A DNA stretch of 64,000 nucleotides from Candidatus Beckwithbacteria bacterium GW2011_GWC1_49_16 (GTDB lineage: Bacteria; Patescibacteriota; Microgenomatia; UBA1400; CG1-02-47-37): contig CP011210.1 of NCBI GenBank assembly GCA_001029675.1, forward strand, positions 256,193 to 320,192, read 5' to 3'. A program made the translations under genes and the position numbers. Of the stretch, positions 7,832 through 41,556 are shown piece after piece (the stretch's first letter is position 1; each line of letters begins with the position of its first letter). The notes under the pieces are model-generated. The model did not search any database, was not told where the DNA came from, and saw nothing but the letters and a program-made list of their open reading frames with translations.

Positions 7832-8395
7832 ATGTTAAAGATTAAGTTATATAAAGATTTACCTGAGGAGTTGAGATCAAAATATTCTAAACTGAAGAGG
7901 GGTGTTTTTGTTGGTGAAGCTCAGGAAGAAGAAGATGAGGGAATTGAACACGAAGAGGAATATTGTAGTGAAGCAGATCTTATCTGTTATTTAATTGCTT
8001 ATGAGGATGAGGAGATAATTGGGGGCTTAGAATTATTTAAAAGGAGGATTAAGCATCTTAATCAATTGATAATTTTAGGTGGGATTGGTAGTCTTTGGGT
8101 GAGAAAAGACAAAAGAAGGAGGGGTTTAGCTACAAAACTACTAAAGAAAGTAATGGAGGAATTAAAGATAAAAGGCTGTGAGGTGGTTTATTTATGTACT
8201 GATATAGGGAAATTAAAAAGTCTATATGCCCAAGTTGGCTTTGTGCCTTTAAAAAAGAATTATACTTTTGTAGGTAGGTCTGGGAAAAGATATTTTAAAG
8301 ATGACGGTATGATTGCTTTCATAAAACCTAAGGAAACTTTAAGGAAGATAGTTAAGAGTAAAGAACCATTCGATATTGGAGTAGGTAATTGGTGA
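7832..8395 (+). CDS. GNAT family N-acetyltransferase (AT-rich, probably horizontally acquired)
   Basis: RRRGLATKLLKKVMEEL acetyl-CoA-binding motif; codon usage visibly more AT-rich than the flanks. Confidence 0.7.
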   Translation: MLKIKLYKDLPEELRSKYSKLKRGVFVGEAQEEEDEGIEHEEEYCSEADLICYLIAYEDEEIIGGLELFKRRIKHLNQLIILGGIGSLWVRKDKRRRGLATKLLKKVMEELKIKGCEVVYLCTDIGKLKSLYAQVGFVPLKKNYTFVGRSGKRYFKDDGMIAFIKPKETLRKIVKSKEPFDIGVGNW

Positions 8396-8401
8396 ATTTG
8401 A

Positions 8402-8511
8402 TTGCCGAATTTTTCCATCAAACCTTTGATCCAAAAGTCGCCGGTGCGGGCCAAGGTGTCGTCAACGTCGACCGCTAAACCTTTGAGTTTCTTTTTCTTG
8501 AGTTTGGCTTT
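8402..8511 (-). pseudogene. duplicated 5' fragment of the HAD hydrolase gene, about 95% identical to 7001-7110
   Basis: Encodes ...KLKGLAVDVDDTLARTGDFWIKGLMEKFGN but lacks the start codon, and the C-terminal part diverges. Confidence 0.7.
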
Positions 8512-8537
8512 GTAGATTCGGTTTATAGTGTTGGAAT

Positions 8538-20125: not shown

Positions 20126-21777
20126 CGGTTTTTGCAGTATTTTAAGCACAGGGTGGGGTTGGGGGCGGTGCGACAAAGGTCTTGGCAATTTAGTGTGGTT
20201 GGTGGAGGAGTTGGGCTGGGACTGGGTGAGGGCGAGGGATACGGGTCAGGCGGGGGTGGGTTGTCAGCCTCAGGAAGATAGTCGGGGAAGGCGGTGGCCT
20301 CTTTCAGATTTAAGATATATTTCCACCAGTTGTTGAGCCGGGATGCGGTTGAGCCGGAGACCCTGGGTAAATGGCTAAACCAGTATTTATGAAAGTCGTA
20401 GCCGCTGCAGTTCCAGGCTTGGCAGTTTAAGTTTTGTTTGGCTTCGGTTAAGTCGGGATAGTTGACCCAGTCCTGACAGGTGCTTGGAACATAGGTTTGG
20501 TTGCTCCAGTCGTAGTCGGTAACCGAGTTGGGAGCGTAATGAATTGAACCGCAACCGCTGTAGTCGTAGTTCGGAGATTGAGCTTTTACTAAGGCGAATT
20601 TGTCCCAGTCATGGGCGGTGCGGTTTTGTGCCCAGCCGCCAAATGCTTGGGTTAGGGCCGACTCGGCCCTGTGGCCAAAACTTTCCAATGCCTCGTTGAT
20701 TTGTCTTTGGTAATTAAGGCCCATGATGGGCAGTTGACGTTGGCAGCCGGTGCCAGCCAGGGGGGGTGAGTTGTACCAAAAGGTGTCGGGTCCGGCCAGG
20801 CGAGATTCGTAAAAGCCAAACCAGGGTCCACCCCAAATCCAAAGCTCGTCTATTTGATTATCATTGACTCGATCGCAGATGTTGAATTGATCAAGGATTT
20901 TTAGATAATCTGCGGTGGCCGCGTCACAGTTGCCTTGAGCCATACAATCAAGGTAACTCTCGTCGGTAAAGTCAAAGCCGGATTCTTTTACTGGGAAGTC
21001 ATCGATGTCTTGCCAGTTGACGATTTGGTAGTTGACGTAGTAGTCGCTGACGGTTTTAAAATCTTGAACCAGCTGGTTGGTTAATTGTTGAGGGTCCTGC
21101 CAGTTATAGTAGTCATAGAGTTTGACTTTATCCTGACTTTCTAAAATTGGTCGGTAGTTGAGAACAACAACCTTGGTAGCTGTGGCTTGGTTGGGGCCCT
21201 GGATAGTGATGATTAGTTTGGCCGCCTTTTCTTCCTCCCGTTCGTAAGCATAGACCCGGCGGATGGTGGCAGATTGAGAGTCAAGAATGATGGTGAGGTT
21301 ATTGCCGGCTTGCCAGTCGGCTTGGTCGACGATTTCTTGAATCACCGGGGCAAGATCGGGAGTAGTTTTGGTGGTGTTAAAGTCCCAGTTGTCGGTGATG
21401 GTCCAGGCAGAGGTGTTGGTGGTGGGAGTTAAGTCTTTGGGTTGACGGCTGGTGCTTAAGGGGGTGGAGTCGGCGGTAGCTTCGGCGGCGATGGTAACGT
21501 TTAGGGGGTCGGTATAAGGGCCGTCGACGGTAAACTGCAAATGAGCCGAGACTACTTGGGAGCCTTGAATTATGGGGAGATTTTCGAAGCGGAAAGCGGC
21601 GGTGTATTGAGTATCGGGGCAGTTAGGGTCAGCTCCGAGGTAAATTTCGTTTCTGGTTTGGGAGTAGTCGCAGCCGGAGGTGGCGTCGTTGGCGCCAGAG
21701 TTTATCTGAAGCCGGTGGTCGGCGTTGATCACTTGGGAGGACCCCGTTTGGTAAATGGTGGGTTCGTTCCGAAACAA
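20122..21777 (-). CDS. secreted hypothetical protein (paralog A) with a PT-rich linker and a C-terminal Cys4 tail; the true start is probably upstream
   Basis: C-terminus ...SPSPSPSPTPPPTTLNCQDLCRTAPNPTLCLKYCKNR. Extending the frame upstream encodes a signal-peptide-like KFYFSSLIFIFFVAPLAGISLG before LFRNEPTIYQ, but it contains no ATG. Confidence 0.5.
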   Translation of the reverse strand: MFRNEPTIYQTGSSQVINADHRLQINSGANDATSGCDYSQTRNEIYLGADPNCPDTQYTAAFRFENLPIIQGSQVVSAHLQFTVDGPYTDPLNVTIAAEATADSTPLSTSRQPKDLTPTTNTSAWTITDNWDFNTTKTTPDLAPVIQEIVDQADWQAGNNLTIILDSQSATIRRVYAYEREEEKAAKLIITIQGPNQATATKVVVLNYRPILESQDKVKLYDYYNWQDPQQLTNQLVQDFKTVSDYYVNYQIVNWQDIDDFPVKESGFDFTDESYLDCMAQGNCDAATADYLKILDQFNICDRVNDNQIDELWIWGGPWFGFYESRLAGPDTFWYNSPPLAGTGCQRQLPIMGLNYQRQINEALESFGHRAESALTQAFGGWAQNRTAHDWDKFALVKAQSPNYDYSGCGSIHYAPNSVTDYDWSNQTYVPSTCQDWVNYPDLTEAKQNLNCQAWNCSGYDFHKYWFSHLPRVSGSTASRLNNWWKYILNLKEATAFPDYLPEADNPPPPDPYPSPSPSPSPTPPPTTLNCQDLCRTAPNPTLCLKYCKNR

Positions 21778-24511: not shown

Positions 24512-24781
24512 ATGTTAAAGACTTATCTTTACGTGCCAGACGAATTAAATCGTGAAGTCGAAGCTTTGGCTACGGCCGGTAAGACCAGCAAGGCGGCGGT
24601 GATCAGAAGTGCGCTTGATGCAGGAGTGAAAATGCTCAAGAGAAAAAAGACTGGTTCTGTGGAGGTTTTAAACCGAATAGCCGAGATTGGCAGAAAATAT
24701 AATCTTAAAGGGCCAAAGGATGCTTCTGCTAAGATGAATGAGTACCTCTGGGATAAAGATTGGAACAAAAAGGATGAATAA
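24512..24781 (+). CDS. ribbon-helix-helix (CopG/VapB-like) antitoxin
   Basis: 89 aa; RHH-like N-terminus; overlaps the downstream PIN gene by ATGAATAA. Confidence 0.55.
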   Translation: MLKTYLYVPDELNREVEALATAGKTSKAAVIRSALDAGVKMLKRKKTGSVEVLNRIAEIGRKYNLKGPKDASAKMNEYLWDKDWNKKDE

Positions 24782-25196
24782 ACAAACTTTGGTGGTGGGG
24801 GACGCAGATTCGATCGTGGCGCGAGCTAATCCCAACGACCTGAAGCACCAGGAAGCTAAAAAGATTACCGATAGACTTAGTGATTTGGAAGCCCAGCTTA
24901 TTTATCCTGTTACCGCTGTGGTTGAGGCGGTAACGTTTATTCAGCGAGCTTTAAATAGTGGGGCAACCGCTTATGGGACAGCGGTGGAGTTTATCGAGTC
25001 GGGGCAAGTGGCAGAGGTAGATGAAGAGATTTATTCCAGGGCCGTTAACGATTTTTTTGACGCCAGTGTCAGCAAACAGGATACTCTATTTGATTGTATC
25101 GTGGCTGCGGTGGCCAAGAAATACGGAGCGGAGGCGATTTTCAGTTTTGATAAGTTTTACCAAAAACACGGGTTTAAGTTGGCGTCAGAGCTGTAA
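24774..25196 (+). CDS. PIN-domain toxin (VapC-like)
   Basis: MNKQTLVVGDADSIV...FDCIVAAVAKKYGAEAIFSFDKFY, a PIN acidic quartet pattern; start overlaps the upstream stop. Confidence 0.65.
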   Translation: MNKQTLVVGDADSIVARANPNDLKHQEAKKITDRLSDLEAQLIYPVTAVVEAVTFIQRALNSGATAYGTAVEFIESGQVAEVDEEIYSRAVNDFFDASVSKQDTLFDCIVAAVAKKYGAEAIFSFDKFYQKHGFKLASEL

Positions 25197-25198
25197 AG

Positions 25199-27184
25199 AT
25201 GAAATTAATTGTGGTGGAGAGTCCGACAAAGGCCAAGACATTGTCTCGATTTTTAGGGGAAGACTATCAGATTGAGGCGTCGATGGGGCACATCAAGGAT
25301 TTACCTAAGAGCAAGTTGGGAGTCGATCTTGAAAAAAACTTTTTGCCCGACTACCAGGTAATCGAGGGCAAGAAAAAAGTGGTGGCGGCCTTGAAAAAGG
25401 CGGCCAATGGGGTAAGCGGGGTGATTTTAGCCACTGACCCGGACCGGGAAGGAGAAGCGATTGCGCGTCATGTTCAAGAGGTGTTGGGCGCAAATAACCA
25501 ATTTTCAAACTCCAATTTTCAAAGAATCGTCTTTCATGAGATTACTAAAACAGCGGTGTTGGGGGCGTTGGCGCACCCGGGAAAGGTGGATTTAAAGCTG
25601 GTAGATGCCCAAACCGCCCGCAGGGTTTTGGACCGGTTGGTTGGATATAAATTGTCGCCAATTTTATGGAAAAAGGTTCGTAGAGGTCTATCTGCCGGTA
25701 GGGTACAAAGCGTGGCAGTACGCTTAATTGTTGAGCGGGAGAAAGAAATCGAGGCTTTTTCGGCTATCGAGTATTGGGAGATTAAAGCACATCTTCGCGC
25801 GACCAAAGGCGAGGTTTGGTTTGATTTGGTTAAGGTCAATGGCAAGAAGCTTGAAGTGGGGAATAAAGAGCAAGCAGATAAGATTGTTGAGGATCTTGAA
25901 AAGGCTAAGTATAGACTAATAGAGGTAGCGGAGAAAGAGGTCAAGCGTTATCCAGCGCCGCCACTGATTACCTCGACTTTGCAGAGGAGTGCGGGCAATA
26001 GGTTTGGTTGGAGCGCCAAAAAGACTATGAGAGAGGCCCAAAGACTGTACGAAGAGGGTTTGATTACCTATCATCGGACAGATAGCGTTAATTTATCTGT
26101 GGTTGCTGTGGAAAAGGTGAGGAAAATGATTGAGGAAAGATACGGAGGCGAGTATTTGCCGGAAAAAGCGGTTTTTTATAAAGCCAAGTCTAAAATGGTC
26201 CAAGGAGCACACGAAGCGATACGGCCTACTGGGCTAAGCACAAAACATGAAGCACGAAGCACGAAACTAGGCAAAGGCGCGGTTTTGCTTTACCGGTTGA
26301 TTTGGGATAGGTTTGTGGCATCACAAATGAAGCCGGCAATAGTCAAAAGAACTATTGCCACTGGTGAAGCGAAAACGGACTCACTTTATTTATTTAAAGC
26401 GAAGGGCGAGCGGTTGGTGTTTGACGGCTGGTCAAAAATCAACGAAAAAATTAATTTACTGACAGTTCAGGAATTACCTCAACTAACAGAGGGAGAAGCG
26501 CTTCAATTAATTAAATTACAACCGGAGCAAAAATTTACCCAACCGCCGGCCCGCTTTACCGAAGCCAGTTTAATTAAAGAATTGGAGCAAAAGGGAATTG
26601 GCAGGCCGTCTACTTATGCGCCGATTATTTCTACCATTCTAATGCGTCAGTACGTAGAAAAAGAAGAAAGGAGTTTGAAGCCGACGGTGATTGGATTGAC
26701 GGTGACGGAGTTTTTGCTTAAACACTTCGCGGGCGTGATGGATTACGAGTTTACGGCTAAAATGGAAAACAATTTGGATCGGGTGGCGGAGGGCAAAGTG
26801 GTTTGGGTCAAGGTGGTAGAGGAGTTTTATCGGCCTTTTTCCGAGAGGCTAACCAAAACTGAGGAAAATGCCAAGAGGGTTAAAATCGCGGTAGAAAAAA
26901 CCGGTGAGGCCTGCCCGGAGTGTAAACAAGGCCTGCCTGCCGGCAGGCAGGGAGAGGTGGTAGTCAGAACCGGAAGGTTTGGCAAGTTTTTATCTTGCTC
27001 GCGGTTTCCGGAGTGCAAATACACGGCTAATTTCAAAGAGGTGGTCAGCGGAGTGGTTTGCGACAAGTGCGGCGGCCAGGTGGTGGTGAAAAAGACCAAA
27101 AAGGGTAAAAAGTTTTACGGTTGCGCCAATTACCCCAAGTGCGATTGGGCCAGCTGGAGCAAGCCCAAACCAAACAAAAGTTGA
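25199..27184 (+). CDS. topA: DNA topoisomerase I
   Basis: TOPRIM ESPTKAKT, active-site Tyr region, C-terminal Cys4 zinc ribbons (CPECK...C..C). Confidence 0.9.
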   Translation: MKLIVVESPTKAKTLSRFLGEDYQIEASMGHIKDLPKSKLGVDLEKNFLPDYQVIEGKKKVVAALKKAANGVSGVILATDPDREGEAIARHVQEVLGANNQFSNSNFQRIVFHEITKTAVLGALAHPGKVDLKLVDAQTARRVLDRLVGYKLSPILWKKVRRGLSAGRVQSVAVRLIVEREKEIEAFSAIEYWEIKAHLRATKGEVWFDLVKVNGKKLEVGNKEQADKIVEDLEKAKYRLIEVAEKEVKRYPAPPLITSTLQRSAGNRFGWSAKKTMREAQRLYEEGLITYHRTDSVNLSVVAVEKVRKMIEERYGGEYLPEKAVFYKAKSKMVQGAHEAIRPTGLSTKHEARSTKLGKGAVLLYRLIWDRFVASQMKPAIVKRTIATGEAKTDSLYLFKAKGERLVFDGWSKINEKINLLTVQELPQLTEGEALQLIKLQPEQKFTQPPARFTEASLIKELEQKGIGRPSTYAPIISTILMRQYVEKEERSLKPTVIGLTVTEFLLKHFAGVMDYEFTAKMENNLDRVAEGKVVWVKVVEEFYRPFSERLTKTEENAKRVKIAVEKTGEACPECKQGLPAGRQGEVVVRTGRFGKFLSCSRFPECKYTANFKEVVSGVVCDKCGGQVVVKKTKKGKKFYGCANYPKCDWASWSKPKPNKS

Positions 27185-27212
27185 TTTGGGCGGGTGATTT
27201 TAGTACATTTGA

Positions 27213-28628
27213 TTGATGGCAAAAAAGCGAGGACGCTTAGTTGTGCGGTATGGGCCGATGTGGTCGGATAAAACCAGTTGGTTAATAAAGCAGTTTGGTA
27301 AAGTGGCTGACACATTGGCTTTTAAGCCCGATATTGATACCAGGTATACTAGAAAGCCGGTTTTAAGGACTCACGATGGAAAGAGCGTGCCGGCAGTAAT
27401 GGTGCCAATTGATCAACCAGAAAAGATTTTCGAGGCAGTAAAAAGAAAACGGGGGGTAATAAAACGAGTGCTGATTGATGAAACTAACTTTTTTTCTGGT
27501 GGTTTGGTGAAAGTAGTTAGAAATTTGATTGGAATGGGGATTGATGTTTATACTGCTGGGTTAATCTTGGATACCGACCTGCAAGACTTTGGTCCAACCA
27601 GGAAGTTAACTAGGATGGCCGATGAGGTGGTAGAAAGTTTTGCTAGGTGTGATTTTATGTTTTTAACTGGTAGGTGTGGGAGGAGAGCCAGGTTTAACTA
27701 TTTTAAAGCAAAAAAGGATACGCAAATTGTGGTGGGGGCCGATGAGTTGTACGGCGTAGCCTGTGAAGATCATTATCAGGCCCTTCACTTTAAGACTGGT
27801 AGTCAAAAACAGTGGTGGTCAAGAATTAAGAAGCTGGTTGGGGCTAATCACCAAAAGAGCGACTGGAGTTGGTTTAGGCGATTAAAGTTACCGTCTAAGA
27901 AAAGGAGGCCGTTAAAGTTTTCCTTTGACCGGTGGCCAAGAATCGAAGTAGTAGCAGACAGTATGCGGGTGGGTAAAACTACGGCGGCTAGGGCTTTGGG
28001 TATAGAGCTTAAAAAACTGGGTCTGCCAGTAAGAGTCAGTTTAGAGGATTGGTCGAATAATCCCTATTTGGAAAAGAGTTACCTTGATTCGTCGGAATGG
28101 ATACTTTTGTCACAAGAGTGGTTTGCTAAGAAAAAATTTGAGCAAATTAAACGTGGAGAGAAAGAAGCAATATTTATTCAGGATGTTAGTCCGGAGATGG
28201 ATTTTGCTTATGCTTTGACCAATGTGCTCATGGGTAGGATGTCAAAGGAGCATTTTAAGGATTACTTTAAGTTCTATTCTAGCCACAAATGGGAAAATCT
28301 GCCGGCTCCAGACGTATTGGTTTATTTGACGATTAGCGATGAAGCCTTAGTGAAAAGGGCGTTGGAGAGTGTTAGGGATCTGGAGAAGATTGATCCATCA
28401 TATTTTTTGTTGATGCGAGCGGTTAATCGAACCTGGCTGGCTGATTCAGACCATATGACGGTGGTTAATATTGATACTGACGACCTTGATTTTTCTAAAG
28501 AAGGCCCGGCTAGAAAAGCCTTAGCCGGGCAGGTTTTAAAAAAACTACACGATTTAGGCTGGAAGTGGGATAATAGTTTTACTGCTGAGATGAAAAGGCA
28601 GGATTGGTTTGCTATGGTAGCAATATGA
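27213..28628 (+). CDS. tdk: fusion protein: thymidine kinase (N-terminal, about 195 aa) plus deoxynucleoside kinase (C-terminal)
   Basis: TK: GPMWSDKTSWLI P-loop, LIDETNFF, CxxC zinc motif. dNK: VVADSMRVGKTTAARAL P-loop and ISDEALVKRALESVRDLEKIDPSYF lid region. Confidence 0.7.
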   Translation: MMAKKRGRLVVRYGPMWSDKTSWLIKQFGKVADTLAFKPDIDTRYTRKPVLRTHDGKSVPAVMVPIDQPEKIFEAVKRKRGVIKRVLIDETNFFSGGLVKVVRNLIGMGIDVYTAGLILDTDLQDFGPTRKLTRMADEVVESFARCDFMFLTGRCGRRARFNYFKAKKDTQIVVGADELYGVACEDHYQALHFKTGSQKQWWSRIKKLVGANHQKSDWSWFRRLKLPSKKRRPLKFSFDRWPRIEVVADSMRVGKTTAARALGIELKKLGLPVRVSLEDWSNNPYLEKSYLDSSEWILLSQEWFAKKKFEQIKRGEKEAIFIQDVSPEMDFAYALTNVLMGRMSKEHFKDYFKFYSSHKWENLPAPDVLVYLTISDEALVKRALESVRDLEKIDPSYFLLMRAVNRTWLADSDHMTVVNIDTDDLDFSKEGPARKALAGQVLKKLHDLGWKWDNSFTAEMKRQDWFAMVAI

Positions 28629-29383
28629 AAAAACAACCGTGGTGGCAAGATCTTAAGAAAATTGGTAGCTGGCCGCTTGGTTGGTTAGCCGAAGTTGAAT
28701 TTCCTGACCAGAGGAAAGCTCAAAAGGAAAAGGGTAGAAAGTGGCCGAGAATTGAAGTGGGAGGCGACACCATGCGGGTGGGTAAAACCACGGCGGCAGT
28801 GGTGTTAAATGAACAGTTTAAGAGGAGGGGTCTGTCGGTTAATTTATCTGACGAAGATTGGCAGTCAAATCCATATTTGTTTGAAAGTTATCGGGATTCT
28901 TCCAAGACGATTTTTGAGTCGCAAAAATGGTTTGCTCAACGTAAGTATGAACAGTTAGGCAGGGAAAATAACTCGATTATGATTCAGTGCGTTCATCCGG
29001 AAATGGATTTTTGCTACGCTTTGACCAACGCGATTATGGGCAAGATGAATCAACGCCATTTTAAAGCCTATATGAGAGTTTATCTGTCTTTGGGGTGGGA
29101 TAAAATTGCGGCGCCTGATTTACTTGTTTATGTCACTGCCAGCGATGATATTTTAGTCAATCGAGCCCAACGGTCAGCGAGAGATTTTGAAGTAATTGAT
29201 CCGGAATATCTTTTGGTGATGAAGTTTTTAAACCAAACTTGGCTCAGTGGAGCTAAAAAGAGAATGGAGGTGTTAGTGATAGATACTGACAATTTTAACT
29301 TTGCCCTCAACCAGAAATCCAGAAAGGAGTTGTCTGACCAAGTGATTAAAAAACTAAAGCAGAGAGGTTGGAGATTAAAGTGA
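28625..29383 (+). CDS. deoxynucleoside kinase family protein (paralog of the C-terminal domain of the upstream fusion)
   Basis: GGDTMRVGKTTAAVVL P-loop, ASDDILVNRAQRSARDFEVIDPEYL. ATGA overlap with the upstream stop. Confidence 0.7.
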   Translation: MKKQPWWQDLKKIGSWPLGWLAEVEFPDQRKAQKEKGRKWPRIEVGGDTMRVGKTTAAVVLNEQFKRRGLSVNLSDEDWQSNPYLFESYRDSSKTIFESQKWFAQRKYEQLGRENNSIMIQCVHPEMDFCYALTNAIMGKMNQRHFKAYMRVYLSLGWDKIAAPDLLVYVTASDDILVNRAQRSARDFEVIDPEYLLVMKFLNQTWLSGAKKRMEVLVIDTDNFNFALNQKSRKELSDQVIKKLKQRGWRLK

Positions 29384-30033
29384 GAAAACAGCAGGGTAAG
29401 TTGATAGTTTTTGAGGGAATCGACGGTTCGGGTAAAGCCACGCAGGCAAAGTTATTGTTTAATTATTTAAAGAAGAGAAAAGTGGCTGTGGAGGAGATTG
29501 CTTTTCCAAGATATGACACCATTCACGGCCAGGTAGTTAAGCGGATGCTTCAGGGTGAGTTTGGTAAAAGCGTTAATCCCTATCTGGCCTGTTTGCCGTT
29601 TGCTTTGGACAGGTTGATGGCTAGAGATATGATCAAAAATTGGCTGGCTCAGGACAAACTAGTGATTGCCGACCGGTATGTGACGGCTAGTATGGTGCAT
29701 TTATCAGCTTTTTTACCGCAGGATAAGCAGCAGCGGAAGTTTATGGACTGGGTGGCGATACTTGAGTATCAGATTCATGGTTTACCGCTGGAGAACTTAG
29801 TGGTTTTACTGAAAGTGCCGGCGAGATTAAGCCAGAAGTTAATGGTAAAAAAAGACATGGTGGAGAAAGATTTAATTTATCAAAAACGGGTTTATAACCA
29901 GTATCAACAGATGGCTAAAAAATTTGGGCATTGGGTAGTGGTCGAGTGCGTTGATAAAAAAGAGGAGATTTTGCCCAAAAGTGAGGTCCACCAGAGGGTG
30001 CTTGAGGCATTAAAGAGAAGAAAGATAATTTAG
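29380..30033 (+). CDS. tmk: thymidylate kinase (GTG start overlapping the upstream stop)
   Basis: LIVFEGIDGSGKATQ P-loop; DRY-type motif ADRYVTAS. Confidence 0.8.
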   Translation: MRKQQGKLIVFEGIDGSGKATQAKLLFNYLKKRKVAVEEIAFPRYDTIHGQVVKRMLQGEFGKSVNPYLACLPFALDRLMARDMIKNWLAQDKLVIADRYVTASMVHLSAFLPQDKQQRKFMDWVAILEYQIHGLPLENLVVLLKVPARLSQKLMVKKDMVEKDLIYQKRVYNQYQQMAKKFGHWVVVECVDKKEEILPKSEVHQRVLEALKRRKII

Positions 30034-30072
30034 GGCTTGACAAGCCCCCATCGGGTTTGGTAACTTTAAATC

Positions 30073-30117
30073 CCAGAGCCACTGGTTGCCTCACGGCAAG
30101 CCAACTCTGGTTTTTTT
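30073..30117 (+). terminator. rho-independent terminator after tmk
   Basis: ccagagccactggttgcc-tcac-ggcaagccaactctgg followed by ttttttt. Confidence 0.6.
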
Positions 30118-30138
30118 ACGGCTCTGAAAGGAGAAAAG

Positions 30139-30396
30139 GTGAAGTTTCCGGAAGGAGCGCCGATTCAAATCAAGGGGTTAATGAGTCAAGACGGAGGAGG
30201 AACATTGCCAGTGGACGGAAAAGATGAAGGTAAGGGTCAAGAAGCTTCAGTAAAACCACCCCATTGGACAGCCATTCCAGACGAAGCATATAAGTCATCG
30301 CCCTGGTTAAAAGACCCTAAAGTCTTGGGGGCGAAACAAACTAGGACAAAACCTGCAACGGTAAGAAAGGGCACTAACCCTGCAGGCAATCCGTAA
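30139..30396 (+). CDS. small Gly/Lys/Pro-rich hypothetical protein (GTG start, good RBS aaaggag)
   Basis: 85-aa ORF bracketed by two intrinsic terminators; strong SD 7 nt upstream. Confidence 0.35.
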   Translation: MKFPEGAPIQIKGLMSQDGGGTLPVDGKDEGKGQEASVKPPHWTAIPDEAYKSSPWLKDPKVLGAKQTRTKPATVRKGTNPAGNP

Positions 30397-30399
30397 GCG

Positions 30400-30422
30400 A
30401 CCACCCGAGAGGGTGGTTTTTT
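30400..30422 (+). terminator. rho-independent terminator
   Basis: accaccc-gaga-gggtggt followed by ttttt. Confidence 0.7.
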
Positions 30423-30461
30423 AAAGTATGAAAGTAAAGCATTAGAAGTTAAATAGTTTAT

Positions 30462-32078
30462 ATGAAGAAGGACTACTACACCAAAGTTTCAAGCTACGAA
30501 GCCAGAATGGGTGAAGTGAAGCGGGTGGTGCTTTTGTATTCTGGGGGTTTGGACACCAGCGTGTTGATGAAGTGGATTCAAGATAAATATAGGGCAGAAG
30601 TGATTGCCCTAACCATAGATTTGGGACAGCAAGGCGACGATTTAGACAAGATCAGAAATAAGGCTTTGAAGCTGGGGGCGAAAAAAGCTTATGTGATTGA
30701 TGCCAAAGACGAGTTTGCTGATGAATATTTGTCGCACATGATTAAGGCCAATGGTTCATATCAGGGGGACTACCATATATCGACAGTGAGTAGGTATTTG
30801 ATGGCCAAACTGGCGATTGTGGTAGCTACCAAAGAGAAGGCTGACGCAGTGGCTCACGGTTGTACCGGAAAAGGTAATGATCAGGTGAGGATTGATTCGA
30901 GCATTTTAACTTTAAACTCCAACGTTAAAATTATTGCGCCAATTAGAGAGTGGGACATGACACGGGAAGCGGAGATCGAATACGCTCAAAAACACCAGAT
31001 TCCTGTGCCGGTAAAGAAAGATTTTCCTTACAGCGTGGATGATAATATGTGGGGAATGACTTGGGAGGGTGGGGAGATTGAAGACCCGGGTAAAATTCCT
31101 CAAATCGACCGGTTTTTGACTGCGTGTAGAACCTTGGACAAGACACCGGATAAACCGCAGATGATTACTTTGGAGTTTAAAAAAGGCGTCCCTTATAAAC
31201 TCAATGGTAAGAGTTATAAGTTAGCAGAGATGATTATGAGGCTTAACAAAATAGCCGGCAGACACGGAGTCGGGGTGGTTCATCATGTGGAAGACAGGCT
31301 AGTGGGCCTAAAAACGAGAGGGGTGTATGAGCATCCCGGTGGTCATACTATTATCCAGGCTCATAAAAATCTAGAGAAGTATGTTTGCACCAGAAGAGAA
31401 AACGAGTTTAAGGAGATTATGGATGTGAGATTTGGCTATCTTTGCTACGGGGCTTTGTGGTTTGACCCAATTATGGATGATATTAGAACTTTGAACGACA
31501 AAATTAACGAAAAGGTAAACGGTAAGGTAACGCTTAGGCTCCATAAAGGCCACGCGACTGTGGTGGCGATGAGGTCGCCTCATGCGCTTCACCACGTGTC
31601 GTTTGAGGACAAGGCGACACCATTTAATGTGATGACCAGTGCGCCTTTTATTGAGGTTTACTCGATGCAGATGAGGTTGTCGCAACAGCGGGGTGAGAAA
31701 AGAGTTTTGTTGTCGATTGGGAGGCAGGGAAATAAAGAAAAATTGTTACCGACTGCCAGGAAGCTTTCTAAGTTGGGTTACGTGATTTTTGCCACTGAAA
31801 AAACTCACAGGTTCTTAACTGAAAATGCGGTGTCCAATTACTTGGTGTATAAAATCAGCGAGAAGAAAGCCCCCAATTTGGGGGTGATGCTTAACGAAAA
31901 GGGGTTTGATCTGATTGTAAACATTCCCACGTCAAGCGTTGACAAGAAAGAAATGACCGACGGCAAGCTGATTCGGCAAAAGGCGGTGGATGATAAAGTG
32001 ACTCTGTTGACGACCGTGGACACAGCCAAGCGCCAGATTGAAAAGCTATATGAAGCTAAATTTGGTAAGCTGGAGTGA
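30462..32078 (+). CDS. argG: argininosuccinate synthase fused to a C-terminal MGS-like domain (CarB allosteric-domain type)
   Basis: VVLLYSGGLDTSV PP-loop and HGCTGKGNDQVRID. C-terminal 130 aa (RVLLSIGRQGNKEKLLPTARKLSKLGYVIFATEKTHRFL...DLIVNIPTS) matches an MGS-like fold. Confidence 0.75.
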   Translation: MKKDYYTKVSSYEARMGEVKRVVLLYSGGLDTSVLMKWIQDKYRAEVIALTIDLGQQGDDLDKIRNKALKLGAKKAYVIDAKDEFADEYLSHMIKANGSYQGDYHISTVSRYLMAKLAIVVATKEKADAVAHGCTGKGNDQVRIDSSILTLNSNVKIIAPIREWDMTREAEIEYAQKHQIPVPVKKDFPYSVDDNMWGMTWEGGEIEDPGKIPQIDRFLTACRTLDKTPDKPQMITLEFKKGVPYKLNGKSYKLAEMIMRLNKIAGRHGVGVVHHVEDRLVGLKTRGVYEHPGGHTIIQAHKNLEKYVCTRRENEFKEIMDVRFGYLCYGALWFDPIMDDIRTLNDKINEKVNGKVTLRLHKGHATVVAMRSPHALHHVSFEDKATPFNVMTSAPFIEVYSMQMRLSQQRGEKRVLLSIGRQGNKEKLLPTARKLSKLGYVIFATEKTHRFLTENAVSNYLVYKISEKKAPNLGVMLNEKGFDLIVNIPTSSVDKKEMTDGKLIRQKAVDDKVTLLTTVDTAKRQIEKLYEAKFGKLE

Positions 32079-33055
32079 TGGTTAAAAAAACTGATGGTTG
32101 GGACTTAAAAAGGTTGCTTGTTGAGGAAATTAAAAAGCAGGGCGGCTGGGTTAATACTCATGCTCATTTTGATAGGGCTTATACTATTTCTCCAAAGCTT
32201 CTTAATCAAGCACATGCGCTTATGGAGCGGAAATGGACTTTGGTTGACCCTATGAAACGGGCTTCTAGCGAAGAGGTATATGAGGCGAGAATCGAAAGAG
32301 CTGTGAGGGCGATGATTAGTCAGGGAGTATCTGCTTGTGCGACATTTATTGATGTTGACCCTGTTGCTGGACTTAGAGCAATAAAGGCAGCATTGAAGGT
32401 AAAGAAAAAATACGCCGGGAAAATTACCATGTTGCTTATTAATCAAGTACTTAAGGGTGTAATTGATGAGGACTCGAGACGATGGGCAGAAAAAGCCTTA
32501 GAGTATGTTGATATTATTGGCGGTAATCCTTCTAAAGACCGACCTCAACCCAGAAAACATCTGGATATTGTGTTGGGATGGGCGAAGAAGACGGGCAAGA
32601 TGGTTCATGTACATATAGATCAGGAGAATAATCCGAAAGAACACGACACTGAACTGTTAGCAAGAAAAACAATAGAGCATGGCCTTGAAGGAAAGGTGGT
32701 AGCGGTTCATTCAATTTCAGTCGGGGCTCAACCAAAGAAGAGAAGAAAAGAAATTTACAAGTTGATGAAGGCGGCTGGATTGATGGTTGTCTGTTCGCCT
32801 TCGGCGGCCATTTCCATGAAGCCGTTGTCATACAGAACAGAAATTCACAATAGCATTGCTCCGGTGCCAGAACTTCTAGATGCGGGGATTACTGTAGGGT
32901 TAGGGTGTGATAATATCGGTGATATTTTTCAGCCGCTGGTTGATGGAGATATGTTTACAGAGTTGAGGTTTTTGGCAGAAGCGTGTCGATTTTACGAGCT
33001 TGATCAGCTGGTGAAAATTGCTACTATTAATGGTAAAAAGGTTTTAGGGATTTAA
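32075..33055 (+). CDS. amidohydrolase-superfamily metal-dependent hydrolase (dihydroorotase-like, possibly PyrC)
   Basis: NTHAHFD (HxH), HVHID and a late GCDNIGD Asp. Translationally coupled to argG (GTGATGG overlap) and directly upstream of pyrD. Confidence 0.5.
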   Translation: MMVKKTDGWDLKRLLVEEIKKQGGWVNTHAHFDRAYTISPKLLNQAHALMERKWTLVDPMKRASSEEVYEARIERAVRAMISQGVSACATFIDVDPVAGLRAIKAALKVKKKYAGKITMLLINQVLKGVIDEDSRRWAEKALEYVDIIGGNPSKDRPQPRKHLDIVLGWAKKTGKMVHVHIDQENNPKEHDTELLARKTIEHGLEGKVVAVHSISVGAQPKKRRKEIYKLMKAAGLMVVCSPSAAISMKPLSYRTEIHNSIAPVPELLDAGITVGLGCDNIGDIFQPLVDGDMFTELRFLAEACRFYELDQLVKIATINGKKVLGI

Positions 33056-33056
33056 A

Positions 33057-33977
33057 ATGGCAGATCTAAAAGTAAAGTTTTTAGGATTAACTTTTGCCAA
33101 CCCGCTGGTGATGCCGTCGGGGATTATTCAGGAGATTGGCGACCACGTGCGGGCGGAAAAAGCCGGGGCCGGCGGGGTGACGACGAAATCTTTAACCAAA
33201 GAACCCAGGGAAGGAAATCCCCTGCCGCGGGTGATCAAATATCCCTTTGGGCTGTTGAATTCGGTGGGTTTGAGAAATCCGGGGATCAAAGAAGGGGTTA
33301 AGCAGCTAAAGGAGTTTGTGGCCCAAAGCAAGATTCCGGTGATTGCCAGTGTTTTTTCGGCCAACGTGCCGGATTTTGTCAGTCTGACAGAACAGGTGGT
33401 AACAGCAAAGCCTGATTTTATCGAGCTCAATCTTTCCTGTCCCAACACCACCGACGAGCTGGGCGAGTCGTTGGGCATGGGGGCGGAGTCAACGGAAAAG
33501 TCAGTAGCGGCGGTGAGGCAGGCAGTGGGAAAAAAGATTAAGTTGATCGCCAAGTTGAGTCCGAATGTGGCCAATATCGACCAGGTAGCCAAAGCCGCGT
33601 CTGACGCGGGAGCCGATGCCATTTCCGCCATCAACACCGTCGGCCCGGGGATGGTGATTGATATTGCTACCAAAAAGCCCAGATTGGGCAACAAAAAGGG
33701 GGGAGTGTCCGGGCCGGGAATCAAGCCGGTGGCGGTGCGGTGTGTTTATGATATTTATAAAGCGGTTAAAATTCCGATTATCGGCATGGGCGGGGTGGAG
33801 ACAGTTTTAGACGTAGTGGAGATGATGCTGGCCGGGGCGACGCTGGTGGGGGTGGGGTCGGCTACCTACAGGCACGGTTTTGGGGTGTACCAAAAGATTA
33901 ACCAAGGTTTGGAAAAATACCTGGAAGAGAATAAGATTAAATCATTAGCAGAACTCGTGGGAGGAGCTCATGAATGA
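33057..33977 (+). CDS. pyrD: dihydroorotate dehydrogenase (class 1-like)
   Basis: FANPLVMPSGI, LNLSCPNT, GMGGV TIM-barrel motifs. Confidence 0.8.
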   Translation: MADLKVKFLGLTFANPLVMPSGIIQEIGDHVRAEKAGAGGVTTKSLTKEPREGNPLPRVIKYPFGLLNSVGLRNPGIKEGVKQLKEFVAQSKIPVIASVFSANVPDFVSLTEQVVTAKPDFIELNLSCPNTTDELGESLGMGAESTEKSVAAVRQAVGKKIKLIAKLSPNVANIDQVAKAASDAGADAISAINTVGPGMVIDIATKKPRLGNKKGGVSGPGIKPVAVRCVYDIYKAVKIPIIGMGGVETVLDVVEMMLAGATLVGVGSATYRHGFGVYQKINQGLEKYLEENKIKSLAELVGGAHE

Positions 33978-34617
33978 CGTAGTAGCTATCTTAAAAAGAA
34001 TCGGGGCGGTGATCACCAACGATCACTTTGTTTACACTTCCGGCAAGCACGGCGAGGTGTATATCAATAAAGACGCGCTTTACCCGCATACTAAGGAAAC
34101 CAGTGAAGTCTGCCGGATTATGGCGGAAAAGTATAAAGATGCTGATGTAGAGGCGGTGGCGGCTCCGGCCGTGGGCGGAACGATTTTGTCCCAATGGGTG
34201 GCTTATCACTTGAGCCAGATAAAGGGTAAAGAGATTTTGAGCGCCTATACGGAAAAAGACGCCGGCACGACCGCTTCGGCGGCGGAGTCAAAGCAATTGT
34301 TTCGTCGCGGCTACGACGCCGTGGTCAAAGGCAAAAAAGTTTTGGTGGTGGAGGATTTGACTACCACCGGCGGTTCGGTGAAACAGGTAGTCGATTGCGT
34401 GAGAGATGCCGGCGGCGAGGTGGTCGGCGTCTGCGTCATGGTCAACCGCGACCCGGAAAATGTCAATTCCGAGTCAGTCGGGACGCCGTTTACGGCCGCC
34501 GGGGTGCTTAAAGCCGAAGCCTTTGACGAGAAGGACTGCCCGTTTTGTAAACAGGGCAGACCGATTAATACCAAAATCGGCCATGGAAAGAAATACCTGG
34601 AAGAGAAAGGTAAATGA
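33970..34617 (+). CDS. pyrE: orotate phosphoribosyltransferase
   Basis: PRPP-binding VLVVEDLTTTGGS. Confidence 0.8.
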   Translation: MNDVVAILKRIGAVITNDHFVYTSGKHGEVYINKDALYPHTKETSEVCRIMAEKYKDADVEAVAAPAVGGTILSQWVAYHLSQIKGKEILSAYTEKDAGTTASAAESKQLFRRGYDAVVKGKKVLVVEDLTTTGGSVKQVVDCVRDAGGEVVGVCVMVNRDPENVNSESVGTPFTAAGVLKAEAFDEKDCPFCKQGRPINTKIGHGKKYLEEKGK

Positions 34618-35036
34618 GTTACGTAGTTTTTTCGATTGCTACGGCTTTGTTTTTTTCGCTGACTTTTTTATTAAGAAAGCTGGCGGTTAAAACTCTGCCG
34701 TTTTCTGCGGCTTTACTGATCGAGGTGGTGGTGGAGTTGGTTTTGTTCGCTATTTTGTTTTGGGTTTTAAAGCCGGAAGGCAGGGTGGAATTGGACTGGT
34801 CAAACAAGGGAGTAAGATACGCGGTTTTGGCCGGAGTGATGGTGGCTTTGGGTGTGGCAGCCAATATCTTGGCAGTCCGAAGTGGGTTTTTGTCTAAGGT
34901 GGTAGCGATTACCTCACCGAGCCAGATTATTTTCGGGGTGCTGTTGGGGCTGGTTTTATTAAGCGAAGCATTGAGCCTGAGGCAGATCGTGGGGGTGATA
35001 CTTGGAGTAGTGGGAGTAATTTTAGTAGTTTACTAG
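34614..35036 (+). CDS. small EamA/DMT-family membrane protein (4 TM)
   Basis: 140 aa with four hydrophobic segments; C-terminal SLRQIVGVILGVVGVIL. Confidence 0.45.
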   Translation: MSYVVFSIATALFFSLTFLLRKLAVKTLPFSAALLIEVVVELVLFAILFWVLKPEGRVELDWSNKGVRYAVLAGVMVALGVAANILAVRSGFLSKVVAITSPSQIIFGVLLGLVLLSEALSLRQIVGVILGVVGVILVVY

Positions 35037-35038
35037 CC

Positions 35039-35614
35039 ATGAAATACAAAGTCGGGGTTTTTGGGTCGGCGGTGGATGAGGGGGACGAGGTGATGGCTAA
35101 GGCGCGGCAGGTGGGCGAAGCGCTGGGTAAGTTTAAAGAGAAAATCATCGTGGTGACCGGTGCCTGCAGCGGCGTGCCCTACGAGGCTGCCCGCGAGGCG
35201 GCCAAGGCAGGAGTAACGGTTTGGGGTTATTCGCCCGAGTTTGATGTTTCAGGCCAAAAGCGGTTTACTCCGGAGGATGACTTGTCAATCTATCAAAGAA
35301 TAGTTTTTGTGCCGCGGCAGTTTGGTTTTGAAGACAGGCCGATGGTGAGGAAAAAGTACAGAAACGTGATTTCTACCGCCGACTGTGACGGGGCCATTTT
35401 TATTGCCGGCCGCTGGGGGACGCTTCACGAGTTTAGCTCGTTAGTTGACTATGGCGGAGTCTGCGGAGTTTTGACCGGCACTGGGGGTATCGCCAAGGAA
35501 CTGCCGCAACTAGATGCCAAGGTCAAAAAAGCCGGCTCGGGGAAAGTGATTTTTGATGTAGATCCTGCTAAGCTGGTCAAAGGAGTGATTGATGAGATTT
35601 CAACAAAAGCTTAG
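35039..35614 (+). CDS. LOG/SLOG-family Rossmann-fold nucleotide-binding protein
   Basis: VGVFGSA...VVTGACSGVPYEAAREA...GRWGTLHEF. Confidence 0.45.
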   Translation: MKYKVGVFGSAVDEGDEVMAKARQVGEALGKFKEKIIVVTGACSGVPYEAAREAAKAGVTVWGYSPEFDVSGQKRFTPEDDLSIYQRIVFVPRQFGFEDRPMVRKKYRNVISTADCDGAIFIAGRWGTLHEFSSLVDYGGVCGVLTGTGGIAKELPQLDAKVKKAGSGKVIFDVDPAKLVKGVIDEISTKA

Positions 35615-36365
35615 TGCGATCCAGAAGAAAAATAACTCGCTGGTATGCGTGGGGTTAGACCAGGGCGAATTTGAGTTTGATAAAAAAATTATTGAAAAAA
35701 CCCACGACTTGGTTTGCGCTTACAAACCCAATTTTTCCTTTTACGAGGCCCGCGGCGAAACGGGTTGGCGGGATTTGAAACTGACGGCGGAGTATTTAAG
35801 AAAAAACTACCCGGAAGTGGTGACCATTGCCGACGCCAAACGGGCAGATATAGGCAACTCCAACCAAGGGTATGTCAAAGCCATTTTTGACGAGTTAAAG
35901 TTTGACGCGGTCACGGTGCATCCCTACTTGGGTCGGGAGGCGGTGTTGCCGTTTCTTGAACGGGCGGACAAGGGAATATTTGTTTTGTGCCGGACGTCAA
36001 ACCCCGGAGCGGGCGAGTTTCAGGATTTGAAAGTTGGTTCTGCGGCGGGTTCGGGGCAAAAACCTTTGTGGCAGGCAGTGACGGAAGGGGTGCGTGATGA
36101 CTGGAATGAAAACGGCAACGTGATGCTGGTGGCCGGAGCCACTTACCCGGAAGAACTCAAAAAGATTAGAGAAGTAGTGGGGGAGATGACGCTTTTGGTG
36201 CCTGGAGTCGGGGCCCAAGGCGGCGATGTAGCCAAAACCGTCAAAGCGGGGGTAAACAGCCGAGGCGCGGGGATGATTGTTAATTCCTCGCGGGGGATAA
36301 TTTTTGCCGACGATCCGAGAACAGCGGCGGAAAAATTAAGAGACGAGATAAACTCGTTTAGATGA
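35589..36365 (+). CDS. pyrF: orotidine-5'-phosphate decarboxylase
   Basis: IADAKRADIGNS (DxKxxDI motif), VCVGLD. Confidence 0.8.
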   Translation: MMRFQQKLSAIQKKNNSLVCVGLDQGEFEFDKKIIEKTHDLVCAYKPNFSFYEARGETGWRDLKLTAEYLRKNYPEVVTIADAKRADIGNSNQGYVKAIFDELKFDAVTVHPYLGREAVLPFLERADKGIFVLCRTSNPGAGEFQDLKVGSAAGSGQKPLWQAVTEGVRDDWNENGNVMLVAGATYPEELKKIREVVGEMTLLVPGVGAQGGDVAKTVKAGVNSRGAGMIVNSSRGIIFADDPRTAAEKLRDEINSFR

Positions 36366-37240
36366 AGTTAACTTTTGCCGGACACTCGGTGGAAATAGTT
36401 TCGGCCCGGCCGGGAGAAAAGATCGACGTTGCCAAACTGTTGGCATACCCAGATGAGTTTCACGGTGACACCCGGGTGAATCATTTGGTTAAGTTCGGCG
36501 ATTCGTTTAGCAGTTTAATTGGTCAAAGCAGGGCGGTTTTGCCGAAAGAGGCAGTGGTGGTTTTAGAACATCATTTTGACGAGGCCAAGAAACTGATGGA
36601 TAAAATTAACGCCTTAGCGCAAAGGTTGGTGGCAGAGCCGGAAAAGTACGACGACATCGGTTTTTGCCGACAGTATTTTGAGCTGGCCCGCGCCGGCTAC
36701 AGCTTGCTTGCCAAGCACGAAGCCGAGTTTGGTTTTGATGCTAAGTCTATTCCGGTGAGTCTGGAGCGGGCAGGGCTGGTGACTACCAGGTTGGCCGGGG
36801 GACTCACTCAAGACGCGGTTATTGATAACGAGGTGGCGGTGGTGACCAAAAGGGTTCACCTTAAAGGCGAGCCGGAAACAAATTTGGCGGTGACGGTCAA
36901 ATGGCGGGATAAGCATAAGCTGATTTCAATCAACGGCCGGGAAGTTTTACTGGCTGATTTTGTCAATCCGGCCTCGGGAGCGAGCGGGGCGGCTTTTTTA
37001 CTGGCGGCCAAAGTGGTGAAAGTTTACCCAATTAAAGTACAGCATCGGTCGGTATCTTTAACCCGGCAGGGGGTGAATTTGATCAAACCAGCGCTGAAAG
37101 AGCTGGGAGTGAAAACCAGTTTTTACAGCGTGGGAGAGGCCAGTCAGCTTAACCGCCAGTATTACCTGGTTGGTAATCGAGCCGTGGCTGACGCCGGCCA
37201 GGTTTTGCGGCATTTTCTGCCTAAGTTTTACAAAGATTAA
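36362..37240 (+). CDS. hypothetical protein embedded in the pyr/pur cluster
   Basis: 292-aa ORF with translational coupling on both sides; no motif recognised. Confidence 0.4.
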   Translation: MKLTFAGHSVEIVSARPGEKIDVAKLLAYPDEFHGDTRVNHLVKFGDSFSSLIGQSRAVLPKEAVVVLEHHFDEAKKLMDKINALAQRLVAEPEKYDDIGFCRQYFELARAGYSLLAKHEAEFGFDAKSIPVSLERAGLVTTRLAGGLTQDAVIDNEVAVVTKRVHLKGEPETNLAVTVKWRDKHKLISINGREVLLADFVNPASGASGAAFLLAAKVVKVYPIKVQHRSVSLTRQGVNLIKPALKELGVKTSFYSVGEASQLNRQYYLVGNRAVADAGQVLRHFLPKFYKD

Positions 37241-40899: not shown

Positions 40900-41556
40900 A
40901 TGCGCAAAAGCGGCGTCATTACCGTAATCGGCAACATTGCTTCGGGTAAGTCGACGGCGGTGCCGATTCTGGCAGAGGCTTTGGGCGGCCAGGCAGTATT
41001 TGCCGACGAGCTGTTCCAAACCGTGGACCCGTTTCGGGATAGGTTTTTAGTTGACATCAAGCGTTGGGCTTTAGCCAACGAGTTGTGGCTGGCGGTGGAG
41101 AGGGTGAATTTATTGAAAACCCACCTTAAGGATGCTAAGCGTCGCTGGCAAGTGATCGACAGCGGGATATTGATGAGTTGGGCTTTTACCCACAGTCATT
41201 TTTTGGCCGGCAATTTGACCGAGGACGAGTGGCGTTTGTTTGAGGTGATTTACCGGCGGTTGACCGATGATTTTTTGGCCGGCACGGTGGTGGTGGCCTT
41301 AAGCTGTCCGGTGGCGACCTTGAGAAAAAGGGTGGTCAAAAGGGGTAGAGTTGAAGAGGAAAGGCGGTTTGAGATTAAATATTACCAAAAAAAGTATCTT
41401 AACAATATTAATAAGGGCTTGACGGCGTTGAAGCGGAAGTTAAGACAAGAAAAGAAAGTTAAATTAATCAGCGTCAACGAAGGTAAGATTATGGATTTTG
41501 CCGCCACCGAGCGGGGCAAGAAACAACTGGTGCGGCTGGTGAAAAAAGAACTTTGA
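40900..41556 (+). CDS. deoxynucleoside kinase (dAK/dCK/dGK family), third paralog
   Basis: ITVIGNIASGKST P-loop; ERV/DRY region; LRKRVVKRGRVEEE lid. Confidence 0.7.
   Translation: MRKSGVITVIGNIASGKSTAVPILAEALGGQAVFADELFQTVDPFRDRFLVDIKRWALANELWLAVERVNLLKTHLKDAKRRWQVIDSGILMSWAFTHSHFLAGNLTEDEWRLFEVIYRRLTDDFLAGTVVVALSCPVATLRKRVVKRGRVEEERRFEIKYYQKKYLNNINKGLTALKRKLRQEKKVKLISVNEGKIMDFAATERGKKQLVRLVKKEL

Follow-up and report, generated by a model that had tools for sequence, protein, structure and literature searches.

TK1-type thymidine kinases (TKs) are tetramers and the deoxynucleoside kinases (dNKs) of the other family are dimers. In Lactobacillus acidophilus R-26, deoxyadenosine kinase/deoxyguanosine kinase (dAK/dGK) and deoxyadenosine kinase/deoxycytidine kinase (dAK/dCK) are tandem-encoded heterodimers in which one subunit activates the other, and in Bacillus subtilis the dck and dgk genes are adjacent. 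Giardia intestinalis, which lacks ribonucleotide reductase (RNR) and is dependent on salvage, has one TK1 and two non-TK1 dNKs (PMC11662666). Added domains or subunits raise the substrate affinity of both its TK1 and its dAK, and the latter is a tetramer built by N-terminal extensions (PMC9190010, PMC11662666). The subject here is a block of three genes on the + strand of a 64,000-nucleotide (nt) stretch of DNA (the window: contig CP011210.1, positions 256,193 to 320,192 of the forward strand) from Candidatus Beckwithbacteria bacterium GW2011_GWC1_49_16. The first gene, ORF1, carries a TK1 domain and a dNK-like domain in one open reading frame (ORF); a standalone dNK-like paralogue, ORF2, and the thymidylate kinase gene, tmk, follow it.

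The block is likely to be a genuine co-transcribed deoxynucleoside-salvage operon with a bifunctional ORF1, in Patescibacteria (the candidate phyla radiation, CPR) near Candidatus Beckwithbacteria, and its fusion to be derived from adjacent, overlapping TK and dNK-like genes that are still unfused in one lineage. Some members already carry the database names ‘thymidine kinase/deoxyadenosine/deoxycytidine kinase’ or ‘deoxynucleoside kinase’, and full-text literature searches gave no paper on a TK-dNK fusion, on the subfamily or on Beckwithbacteria deoxynucleoside salvage. This would be the first TK1-dNK fusion to be described. What is new is a conserved Rosetta-stone fusion and an unusual arginine arrangement within known enzyme families, and not a new kind of system.

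A conserved TK1-dNK fusion in a coupled kinase block

ORF1 (27216..28628) is read without a break from a TTG at 27213, or the ATG at 27216, to the TGA at 28626-28628. The ATG is the likelier start because homologues begin MAKKKGKLVVRHGPMW (MAKKKGKLVV...), and it gives a product of 470 amino acids (aa). (The gene call of the Joint Genome Institute, JGI, places the start at GTG 27243, with which strand beta-1 would be lost.) Pfam recognises the TK family (PF00265) at aa 7-187 (27234..27776; E 3e-20, 73.2 bits against a cut-off of 20.6) and the dNK family (PF01712) at aa 249-442 (E 9e-18, 65.3 bits against 27), the latter in a dNK-like domain that spans aa 241-450 (27936..28565). Each half has a known structure as its counterpart, in sequence (PDB 2orw for TK1, E 2.6e-19; PDB 8puu for the dNK-like half, 1.5e-8) as well as in fold. 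The AlphaFold2 model, built from 49 sequences, has a mean predicted local distance difference test score (pLDDT) of 84.9 with both cores above 90, and a Foldseek search of its halves returned 2orw for TK1 (E 6.5e-14, target-normalised TM-score, TMt, 0.87) and chain A of 8puu, the Giardia dAK, for the dNK-like half (E 1.3e-11, TMt 0.80). A sequence-only reading of the stretch had proposed the fusion, at 471 aa, with an ORF for a paralogous dNK next to it in an ATGA overlap and then tmk in a GTGA overlap; the single frame, the two Pfam domains and the gene order all bear this out.

The same TK and dNK architecture, which that reading had suggested should be sought in relatives, is retained in about 50 protein clusters at 37-57% identity, whose named records are from Candidatus Beckwithbacteria or other Patescibacteria. 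An intact fusion ORF is present in 10 further genome assemblies (species representatives in GTDB), beyond the organism's own contig L009. The ‘linker’ between the domains (aa 188-240; 27777..27935) has the pattern W..R(L/I)K...LP..RRPL...WPRIEV and is an N-terminal extension conserved in the dNK-like family, not a read-through spacer. The first 45 residues of ORF2 (aa 6-45) align with it, as do the N-termini of P0053, P0058 and P0060, which are standalone members, and it holds P226 and R230, which are invariant across the fusions; in the model it forms short helices at pLDDT 57-73. (The AAGGAGG at 27905-27911, though Shine-Dalgarno-like, was set aside as a start signal for a separate dNK protein because it encodes KRR; no in-frame start codon is in range.) In the metagenome-assembled genome (MAG) L026 a 189-aa TK and the dNK-like gene are separate, overlapping ORFs, plausibly the state before fusion.

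ORF1, ORF2 (28625..29383, 252 aa) and tmk (29380..30033, 217 aa) form one transcription unit, the genes of which are translationally coupled. ORF1 and ORF2 overlap by 4 nt (aatATGAaaa, 28625-28628), as do ORF2 and tmk (aaaGTGAgaa, 29380-29383), and a GGAG lies 6 nt 5′ of the tmk GTG. The same overlaps are in the JGI gene calls on identical contigs. ORF2 matches the Pfam dNK family at aa 50-243 (E 5e-16, 59.4 bits against 27) and is 48% identical to ORF1 aa 200-450, while the tmk product matches Thymidylate_kin (PF02223) at aa 11-196 (E 2e-22, 80.4 bits against 27) and has the P-loop FEGIDGSGKAT and an ADRY motif. The unit seems to end on the + strand 3′ of tmk, at 30073..30117, in a terminator-like hairpin (CCAGAG...CUCUGG) with U7 after it. 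Its fold energy is −33.3 kcal/mol (z −2.7) and none of 200 shuffled sequences was as stable; a simple terminator scan did not return it, because its stem is bulged. At the other end of the unit the gap between topA and ORF1 is 31 nt, and a promoter scan gave matches at chance level, with none in this gap. Apart from tRNAs, Rfam models matched nothing in the window, the 428-nt spacer 3′ of tmk (30034-30461) included. That spacer also contains a perfect short hairpin (30034-30048) and an 85-aa ORF (30139-30396) that JGI calls as a gene and that has no Pfam match.

From its family the TK1 domain would phosphorylate thymidine, and probably deoxyuridine, to the monophosphates dTMP and dUMP, and the tmk product would take dTMP to the diphosphate dTDP. 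The dNK-like domain of ORF1 is predicted to phosphorylate other deoxynucleosides, most likely deoxyadenosine, deoxyguanosine and deoxycytidine, with R251 replacing the arginine of the motif known as ERS. ORF2 probably widens or splits the substrate range and is possibly a hetero-oligomer partner of ORF1. It had been suggested that the fusion serves to channel deoxynucleosides to their monophosphates, but there is no intermediate for it to channel, since the two activities work side by side on different nucleosides and not one after the other. By analogy with related enzymes, fixed stoichiometry and higher-order assembly would be more plausible benefits.

Several observations weigh against so straightforward an assignment. 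None of ORF1, ORF2 and tmk reaches an NCBIfam equivalog cut-off: the thymidine kinase equivalog NF003296 gives ORF1 101.6 bits, under its cut-off of 183, and the dTMP kinase models match tmk at 3e-36 and 3e-21 but all under their cut-offs (76.2 bits against 83.25 for TIGR00041). Altered chemistry is possible at three places, since the TK Walker A motif has Asp in place of its last Gly, the dNK domains are without the otherwise conserved ERS arginine, and ORF2 has Cys at the acidic ERS position (QCVHPEMD). In addition, the covariation of arginines over 107 domains (see below) is phylogenetically non-independent, bootstrapped neighbour-joining does not settle where ORF2 falls in the family tree, and the residue mapping depends on a Drosophila dNK sequence whose numbering matches the published residue names.

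Catalytic residues and alternative roles of the kinases

ORF2 keeps all the invariant residues of the family but D323, the position of its Cys. Its P-loop is GDTMRVGKTT, its LID is NRAQRSARDFE and it has Val at the ERS-Arg position. An orthologue (P0057, 74% identity) shares the change from Asp to Cys, which is also seen, independently, in P0076 and P0081. Among the loci fetched, a gene for ORF2 between the fusion and tmk is confined to the window's own population; in other Beckwithbacteria-type loci the fusion is directly followed by tmk. ORF2, which occurs in this lineage alone, would be an old paralogue rather than a recent duplicate, because neighbour-joining trees with 300 bootstraps do not place it. 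It grouped with ORF1 in 5% of replicates, with the Beckwithbacteria fusions in 14% and with P0058, P0076 and P0081 in 5%, and no placement exceeded 14%. A recent tandem duplication of the C-terminal half of ORF1 was considered and is not supported by this 5% monophyly and the approximately 53% identity of ORF2 to all the family.

By analogy with Lactobacillus dAK/dGK, ORF2 may pair with the dNK half of ORF1. That it would do so mainly as a non-catalytic or activating partner, heterodimerising on the model of the L. acidophilus dAK/dGK and dAK/dCK, is a rival proposal. It draws on the tandem, translationally coupled position of the paralogous gene, on its presence only in this lineage and beside the fusion, and on the Asp to Cys change being both kept in the orthologue and recurrent elsewhere. 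However, all the other invariant catalytic residues are kept, and there are standalone members without any nearby partner gene, and a mainly non-catalytic or activating ORF2 seems doubtful to us.

The arginine pattern of the dNK-like domains bears on what they phosphorylate. Compared with GxxGxGKTT, the P-loops of ORF1 (ADSMRVGKTT) and ORF2 have Asp for the first Gly and Arg (R251 in ORF1) for the middle one, with GKTT kept, and the ERS-equivalent motif of ORF1 is QDVSPEMD, with V324 at the position of the ERS arginine. Relatives above approximately 43% identity share the P-loop (A/G/S)D(S/T)MR(V/I)GKTT and QDV-PEMD(F/Y), whereas the nearest canonical dNKs (P0071-74, approximately 32% identity) have GNIGSGKTT and QDRTIYED, with DRT at the ERS position. 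Of 107 domains surveyed, 92 have the P-loop arginine without that of the ERS motif, seven have the reverse, eight have neither and none has both; the ERS-Arg position is occupied by Val or Leu in 91 domains and by Gln in one more. The subfamily is small, with 35 cluster representatives at E <= 1e-30, and its named records are from Beckwithbacteria, Woesebacteria, Microgenomates and Patescibacteria only.

The remaining catalytic residues have counterparts in Drosophila melanogaster dNK (Dm-dNK). The catalytic base E52 corresponds to E277, the 3′-OH ligands Y70 and E172 to Y289 and E390, the base-binding Q81 to Q300 and the LID arginine R169 to R387, while R105 of the ERS motif (R128 of dCK) has V324 as its equivalent; alignment of the canonical P0071-74 gives the same picture. 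K254, T256, E277, Y289, Q300, K307, D329, R381, R387 and E390 are the invariant residues across the family, with E277, Y289, E390 and Q300 conserved in nearly all of the 107 domains. K307 and D329 lie where dNKs that accept purines and cytosine, such as dCK and dGK, typically have an Arg/Asp pair.

These domains might then be something other than ordinary dNKs, with another acceptor (for instance deoxynucleoside monophosphates, dNMPs) or with a role as nucleotide-binding regulatory or scaffold modules for the TK. The replacement of the ERS arginine in 92 of the 107 domains and the members without either arginine are consistent with this, as is the P-loop arginine, since its position is that of the catalytic P-loop arginine in type-I thymidylate kinases (TMPKs); herpes TK, moreover, has a TMP-kinase side activity. 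Elsewhere the subfamily is often fused to, or beside, another kinase of the AAA_33 family and a TMPK. Set against this is the invariance of the ligands for the 5′-OH (E277), the 3′-OH (Y289, E390) and the base (Q300, K307/D329), together with both LID arginines (R381, R387). To our knowledge, nucleoside monophosphate (NMP) kinases universally keep the arginine of a DRx motif for the acceptor phosphate; it is absent here, and a canonical tmk already adjoins. An acceptor or role of this kind is rather improbable, and ordinary deoxynucleoside phosphorylation by the dNK-like half is the reading retained. A shift of the transition-state arginine out of the ERS motif and into the P-loop (R251) is put forward as a hypothesis only, because the covariation is phylogenetically non-independent.

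The motifs of the TK half that the sequence-only reading had cited are present: the P-loop (GPMWSDKTSWLI), LIDETNFF, and the zinc ligands C145 and C154 (Cx8C) with C183 and H186. The catalytic glutamate is E89 in IDETNFF, D41-x-R43 precedes it, and Y179 is the lasso tyrosine; K19, T20, D41, R43, D88, E89, Y179, C145, C154 and C183 are invariant in 49 fusions. That reading's description of both domains as complete has to be qualified, for the TK P-loop has Asp for Gly (GPMWSDKT) and the dNK-like domain has the P-loop arginine and not the ERS one.

A TK domain made catalytically dead by the Gly to Asp change, and kept for sensing of thymidine or its triphosphate dTTP or for oligomerisation, is unlikely. 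The whole Beckwithbacteria-type clade carries GPMWSDKT, in contrast to fusions further off, which keep GPMFSGKT or GPMFAGKT, and in the same clade only, the first zinc pair is widened from CxxC to Cx8C and the fourth ligand is His. But K19, T20, D41, R43, E89, Y179 and the zinc ligands are invariant, and no second TK gene was seen within the window. Moreover, about one fifth of the nearest standalone TK1 representatives, which were drawn from a library of 1.84 billion proteins, have D, R, K, S, E, N or A at this position of Walker A. Because of that variability the Asp was dropped as proof of inactivity; it is a natural variant that recurs, and does not speak for a dead enzyme.

An artefact of assembly or a frameshift, joining separate tdk and dNK genes into the 470-aa ORF, can be dismissed with near certainty, though the unfused overlapping pair of L026 illustrates how a single-base error could make or break the fusion. 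The ORF1-identical protein is on seven contigs; the three of these loci that were fetched come from three different, separately assembled JGI samples and match the window letter for letter over 27101-30120, and the protein is encoded unchanged on a third-party MAG contig (L009). The approximately 50 diverged homologues are all single-frame, and the linker, with its invariant residues, has its homologue in the N-terminal extension of standalone members. The stop codon or frameshift between the two parts against which the sequence-only reading had cautioned is not borne out.

With ORF1 taken as a genuine bifunctional salvage kinase, a conserved polypeptide joining two structurally unrelated dNK families provides a handle on how the CPR supply their deoxynucleoside triphosphates (dNTPs). 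These bacteria have tiny genomes and are thought to be host-dependent for many building blocks, and their dNTP supply is poorly known. The dNK half is also a natural experiment in the moving of a catalytic arginine, and the kinases could serve as compact, possibly broad-range biocatalysts for making nucleotide analogues.

Genomic surroundings in the window and in relatives

In relatives, which often have an RNR immediately upstream of the fusion, the gene order is topA, an RNR with an ATP-cone, the fusion, tmk, dCMP deaminase, PNP and then pyrimidine genes, and salvage kinases beside tmk, RNR, dCMP deaminase and pyrimidine genes accord with expected biology. In the window topA is directly followed by the fusion, and no RNR is present within the 64 kb. 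Downstream are genes for an argininosuccinate synthase with an MGS-like domain (ArgG-MGS), dihydroorotase, dihydroorotate dehydrogenase (DHODH), a phosphoribosyltransferase (PRTase), orotidine monophosphate (OMP) decarboxylase, phosphoribosyl pyrophosphate (PRPP) synthase, a second PRTase, GMP synthase, the dNK-family ORF at 40900, serine hydroxymethyltransferase (SHMT) and FolD. One of the PRTases occupies the pyrE position. For a standalone member, P0058, the order is dNK-like, tmk, ArgG-MGS, pyrC and pyrD, which is that of the window from ORF2 onward. Partners to which the dNK-like domain is joined, or beside which it lies, in other lineages are an AAA_33 kinase, a HAD nucleotidase-like protein and a TMPK fused to Nuc_deoxyrib_tr or HD, with ThyA and dUTPase/dCTP deaminase genes near. 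Because these partners elsewhere all act in deoxynucleotide metabolism, the association supports the assignment.

The fusion had been thought to fit an organism that relies on scavenged nucleosides. This rationale is weakened, since the window carries de novo pyrimidine genes, namely those for dihydroorotase, DHODH, the PRTase at the pyrE position and OMP decarboxylase, besides PRPP synthase and GMP synthase, and relatives have RNR beside the fusion; pure nucleoside scavenging is not implied. A bolder and distinctly speculative reading, with less to commend it than the salvage operon as such, is that the subfamily is a mechanistically distinct dNK class with its arginine in the P-loop, a split comparable to that between type-I and type-II TMPKs, that the fusion and ORF2 form a high-affinity hetero-oligomer supplying all four dNMPs, and that the extra paralogue perhaps offsets loss of an RNR, the one meant being that which relatives have at the syntenic position. 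Such a complex would assemble through the tetramer interface of TK1 and the dimer interface of the dNKs, together with the conserved N-terminal extension.

A third dNK paralogue had been reported at 40900. The 218-aa ORF there (40900..41556, + strand), between guaA and glyA, does belong to the dNK family (Pfam, 3e-17) but close paralogy does not hold: it is only approximately 20% identical to ORF1 and ORF2 and is without equivalents of Tyr70, Gln81 and Arg105. It begins 3 nt after the guaA stop codon, overlaps the listed glyA start by 4 nt, and has a canonical P-loop (GNIASGKST) and an arginine-rich LID; no NCBIfam family matched it. On its sequence it would be a remote, atypical family member, outside the kinase block.

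Longer fusions of TK, dNK-like domain and an AAA_33 ‘predicted kinase’, of approximately 630-685 aa, were also seen in related lineages (L008 5001-6917, which is P0043, and P0042, P0076 and P0078), as were fusions of the dNK-like domain with AAA_33 alone (L032 4001-5341, which is P0053, and P0054). The triple fusions may be multi-step salvage enzymes.

Next to the block, window 30462-32078 (taken together with 32075-33977; also L030 6040-7671) encodes the argininosuccinate synthase (NCBIfam equivalog, 473 bits against 334) with its C-terminal MGS-like domain, whose closest similarity is to the allosteric tail of the large subunit of carbamoyl-phosphate synthase. The gene is directly 5′ of those for dihydroorotase and DHODH, where relatives have two ATCase-like genes or carA/carB, and the order tmk, ArgG-MGS, pyrC, pyrD recurs in an unrelated metagenome contig. 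The arrangement may provide an unusual route into pyrimidine synthesis or an unusual means of regulating it. Within the pyrimidine/PRPP run are also a SLOG cluster-4 or TIGR00725-like protein (35039-35614; LOG-type, possibly nucleotide-processing) and a 292-aa ORF (36362-37240) that belongs to no Pfam or NCBIfam family, and 34614-35036 encodes an EamA transporter of half size.

Between dprA and topA a PIN-domain protein (24738-25196; a 140-aa gene in the JGI call) is overlapped by an 89-aa gene just upstream, and the two look like a toxin-antitoxin pair. GC skew is strongly positive in every 2-kb bin of the window (0.14-0.34) and the + strand carries most of the genes, in keeping with a single replichore. 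A patch of low GC (0.39, 8001-10000) contains a 509-aa minus-strand ORF without a Pfam family. Other large ORFs without a Pfam family are at 48087-50486 (799 aa, at E <= 1e-3) and, at E <= 1e-5, at 50997-52856 (619 aa), 20122-21777 (551 aa) and 3861-5177 (438 aa).

Comparison with known kinases

The TK half has the fold of TK1 enzymes (Thermotoga maritima TK, 2ORW; Bacillus cereus TK, 2JA1) at TMt 0.80-0.87, and shares with them the catalytic glutamate in the DE..FF motif, D-x-R, the zinc-binding lasso domain and the lasso tyrosine. Unlike them, it has GPMWSDKT, Cx8C and His as fourth ligand, and is covalently joined to a non-TK1 dNK.

The dNK-like halves, though approximately 30% or less identical to any characterised enzyme, have the fold of canonical non-TK1 dNKs (Giardia dAK, 8PUU; Mycoplasma mycoides dAK, 2JAQ; Drosophila dNK; human dCK and dGK), with the catalytic glutamate, the Tyr/Glu pair for the 3′-OH, the base-binding Gln, the basic/Asp pair and the LID arginines in common. 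An N-terminal extension before beta-1 is also found in Giardia dAK, where tetramerisation depends on it. The subfamily differs from the canonical enzymes in having Val or Leu for the ERS/DRS arginine, a P-loop (A/G)D(S/T)MRVGKTT that contains Arg, and Lys at 307 for the usual Arg. Type-I TMPKs (yeast, human) have the P-loop GxDRxGKST and type-II (E. coli) have the arginine in the LID. The subfamily shares with the type-I enzymes an arginine at the same P-loop position (x-R-x-G-K), and the two TMPK types offer the idea that members of a single kinase superfamily may differ in which structural element holds the catalytic arginine. However, TMPKs keep the DRY/DRH arginine, which the subfamily lacks, and its acceptor is probably a nucleoside and not an NMP.

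As in Lactobacillus and Bacillus subtilis, two paralogous dNK genes are side by side in an operon, with a TK1-type enzyme in addition, which in those organisms is separate. The present pair differs from the Lactobacillus pairs in that one paralogue is fused to the TK and in that the paralogues, only 48% identical, are of old relationship. In its complement of one TK1-type unit and two non-TK1 dNKs the block resembles that of Giardia. The Giardia fusion, however, is of TK1 to TK1 and the one here is of TK1 to dNK, and while Giardia is without all de novo synthesis, this window has de novo pyrimidine genes.

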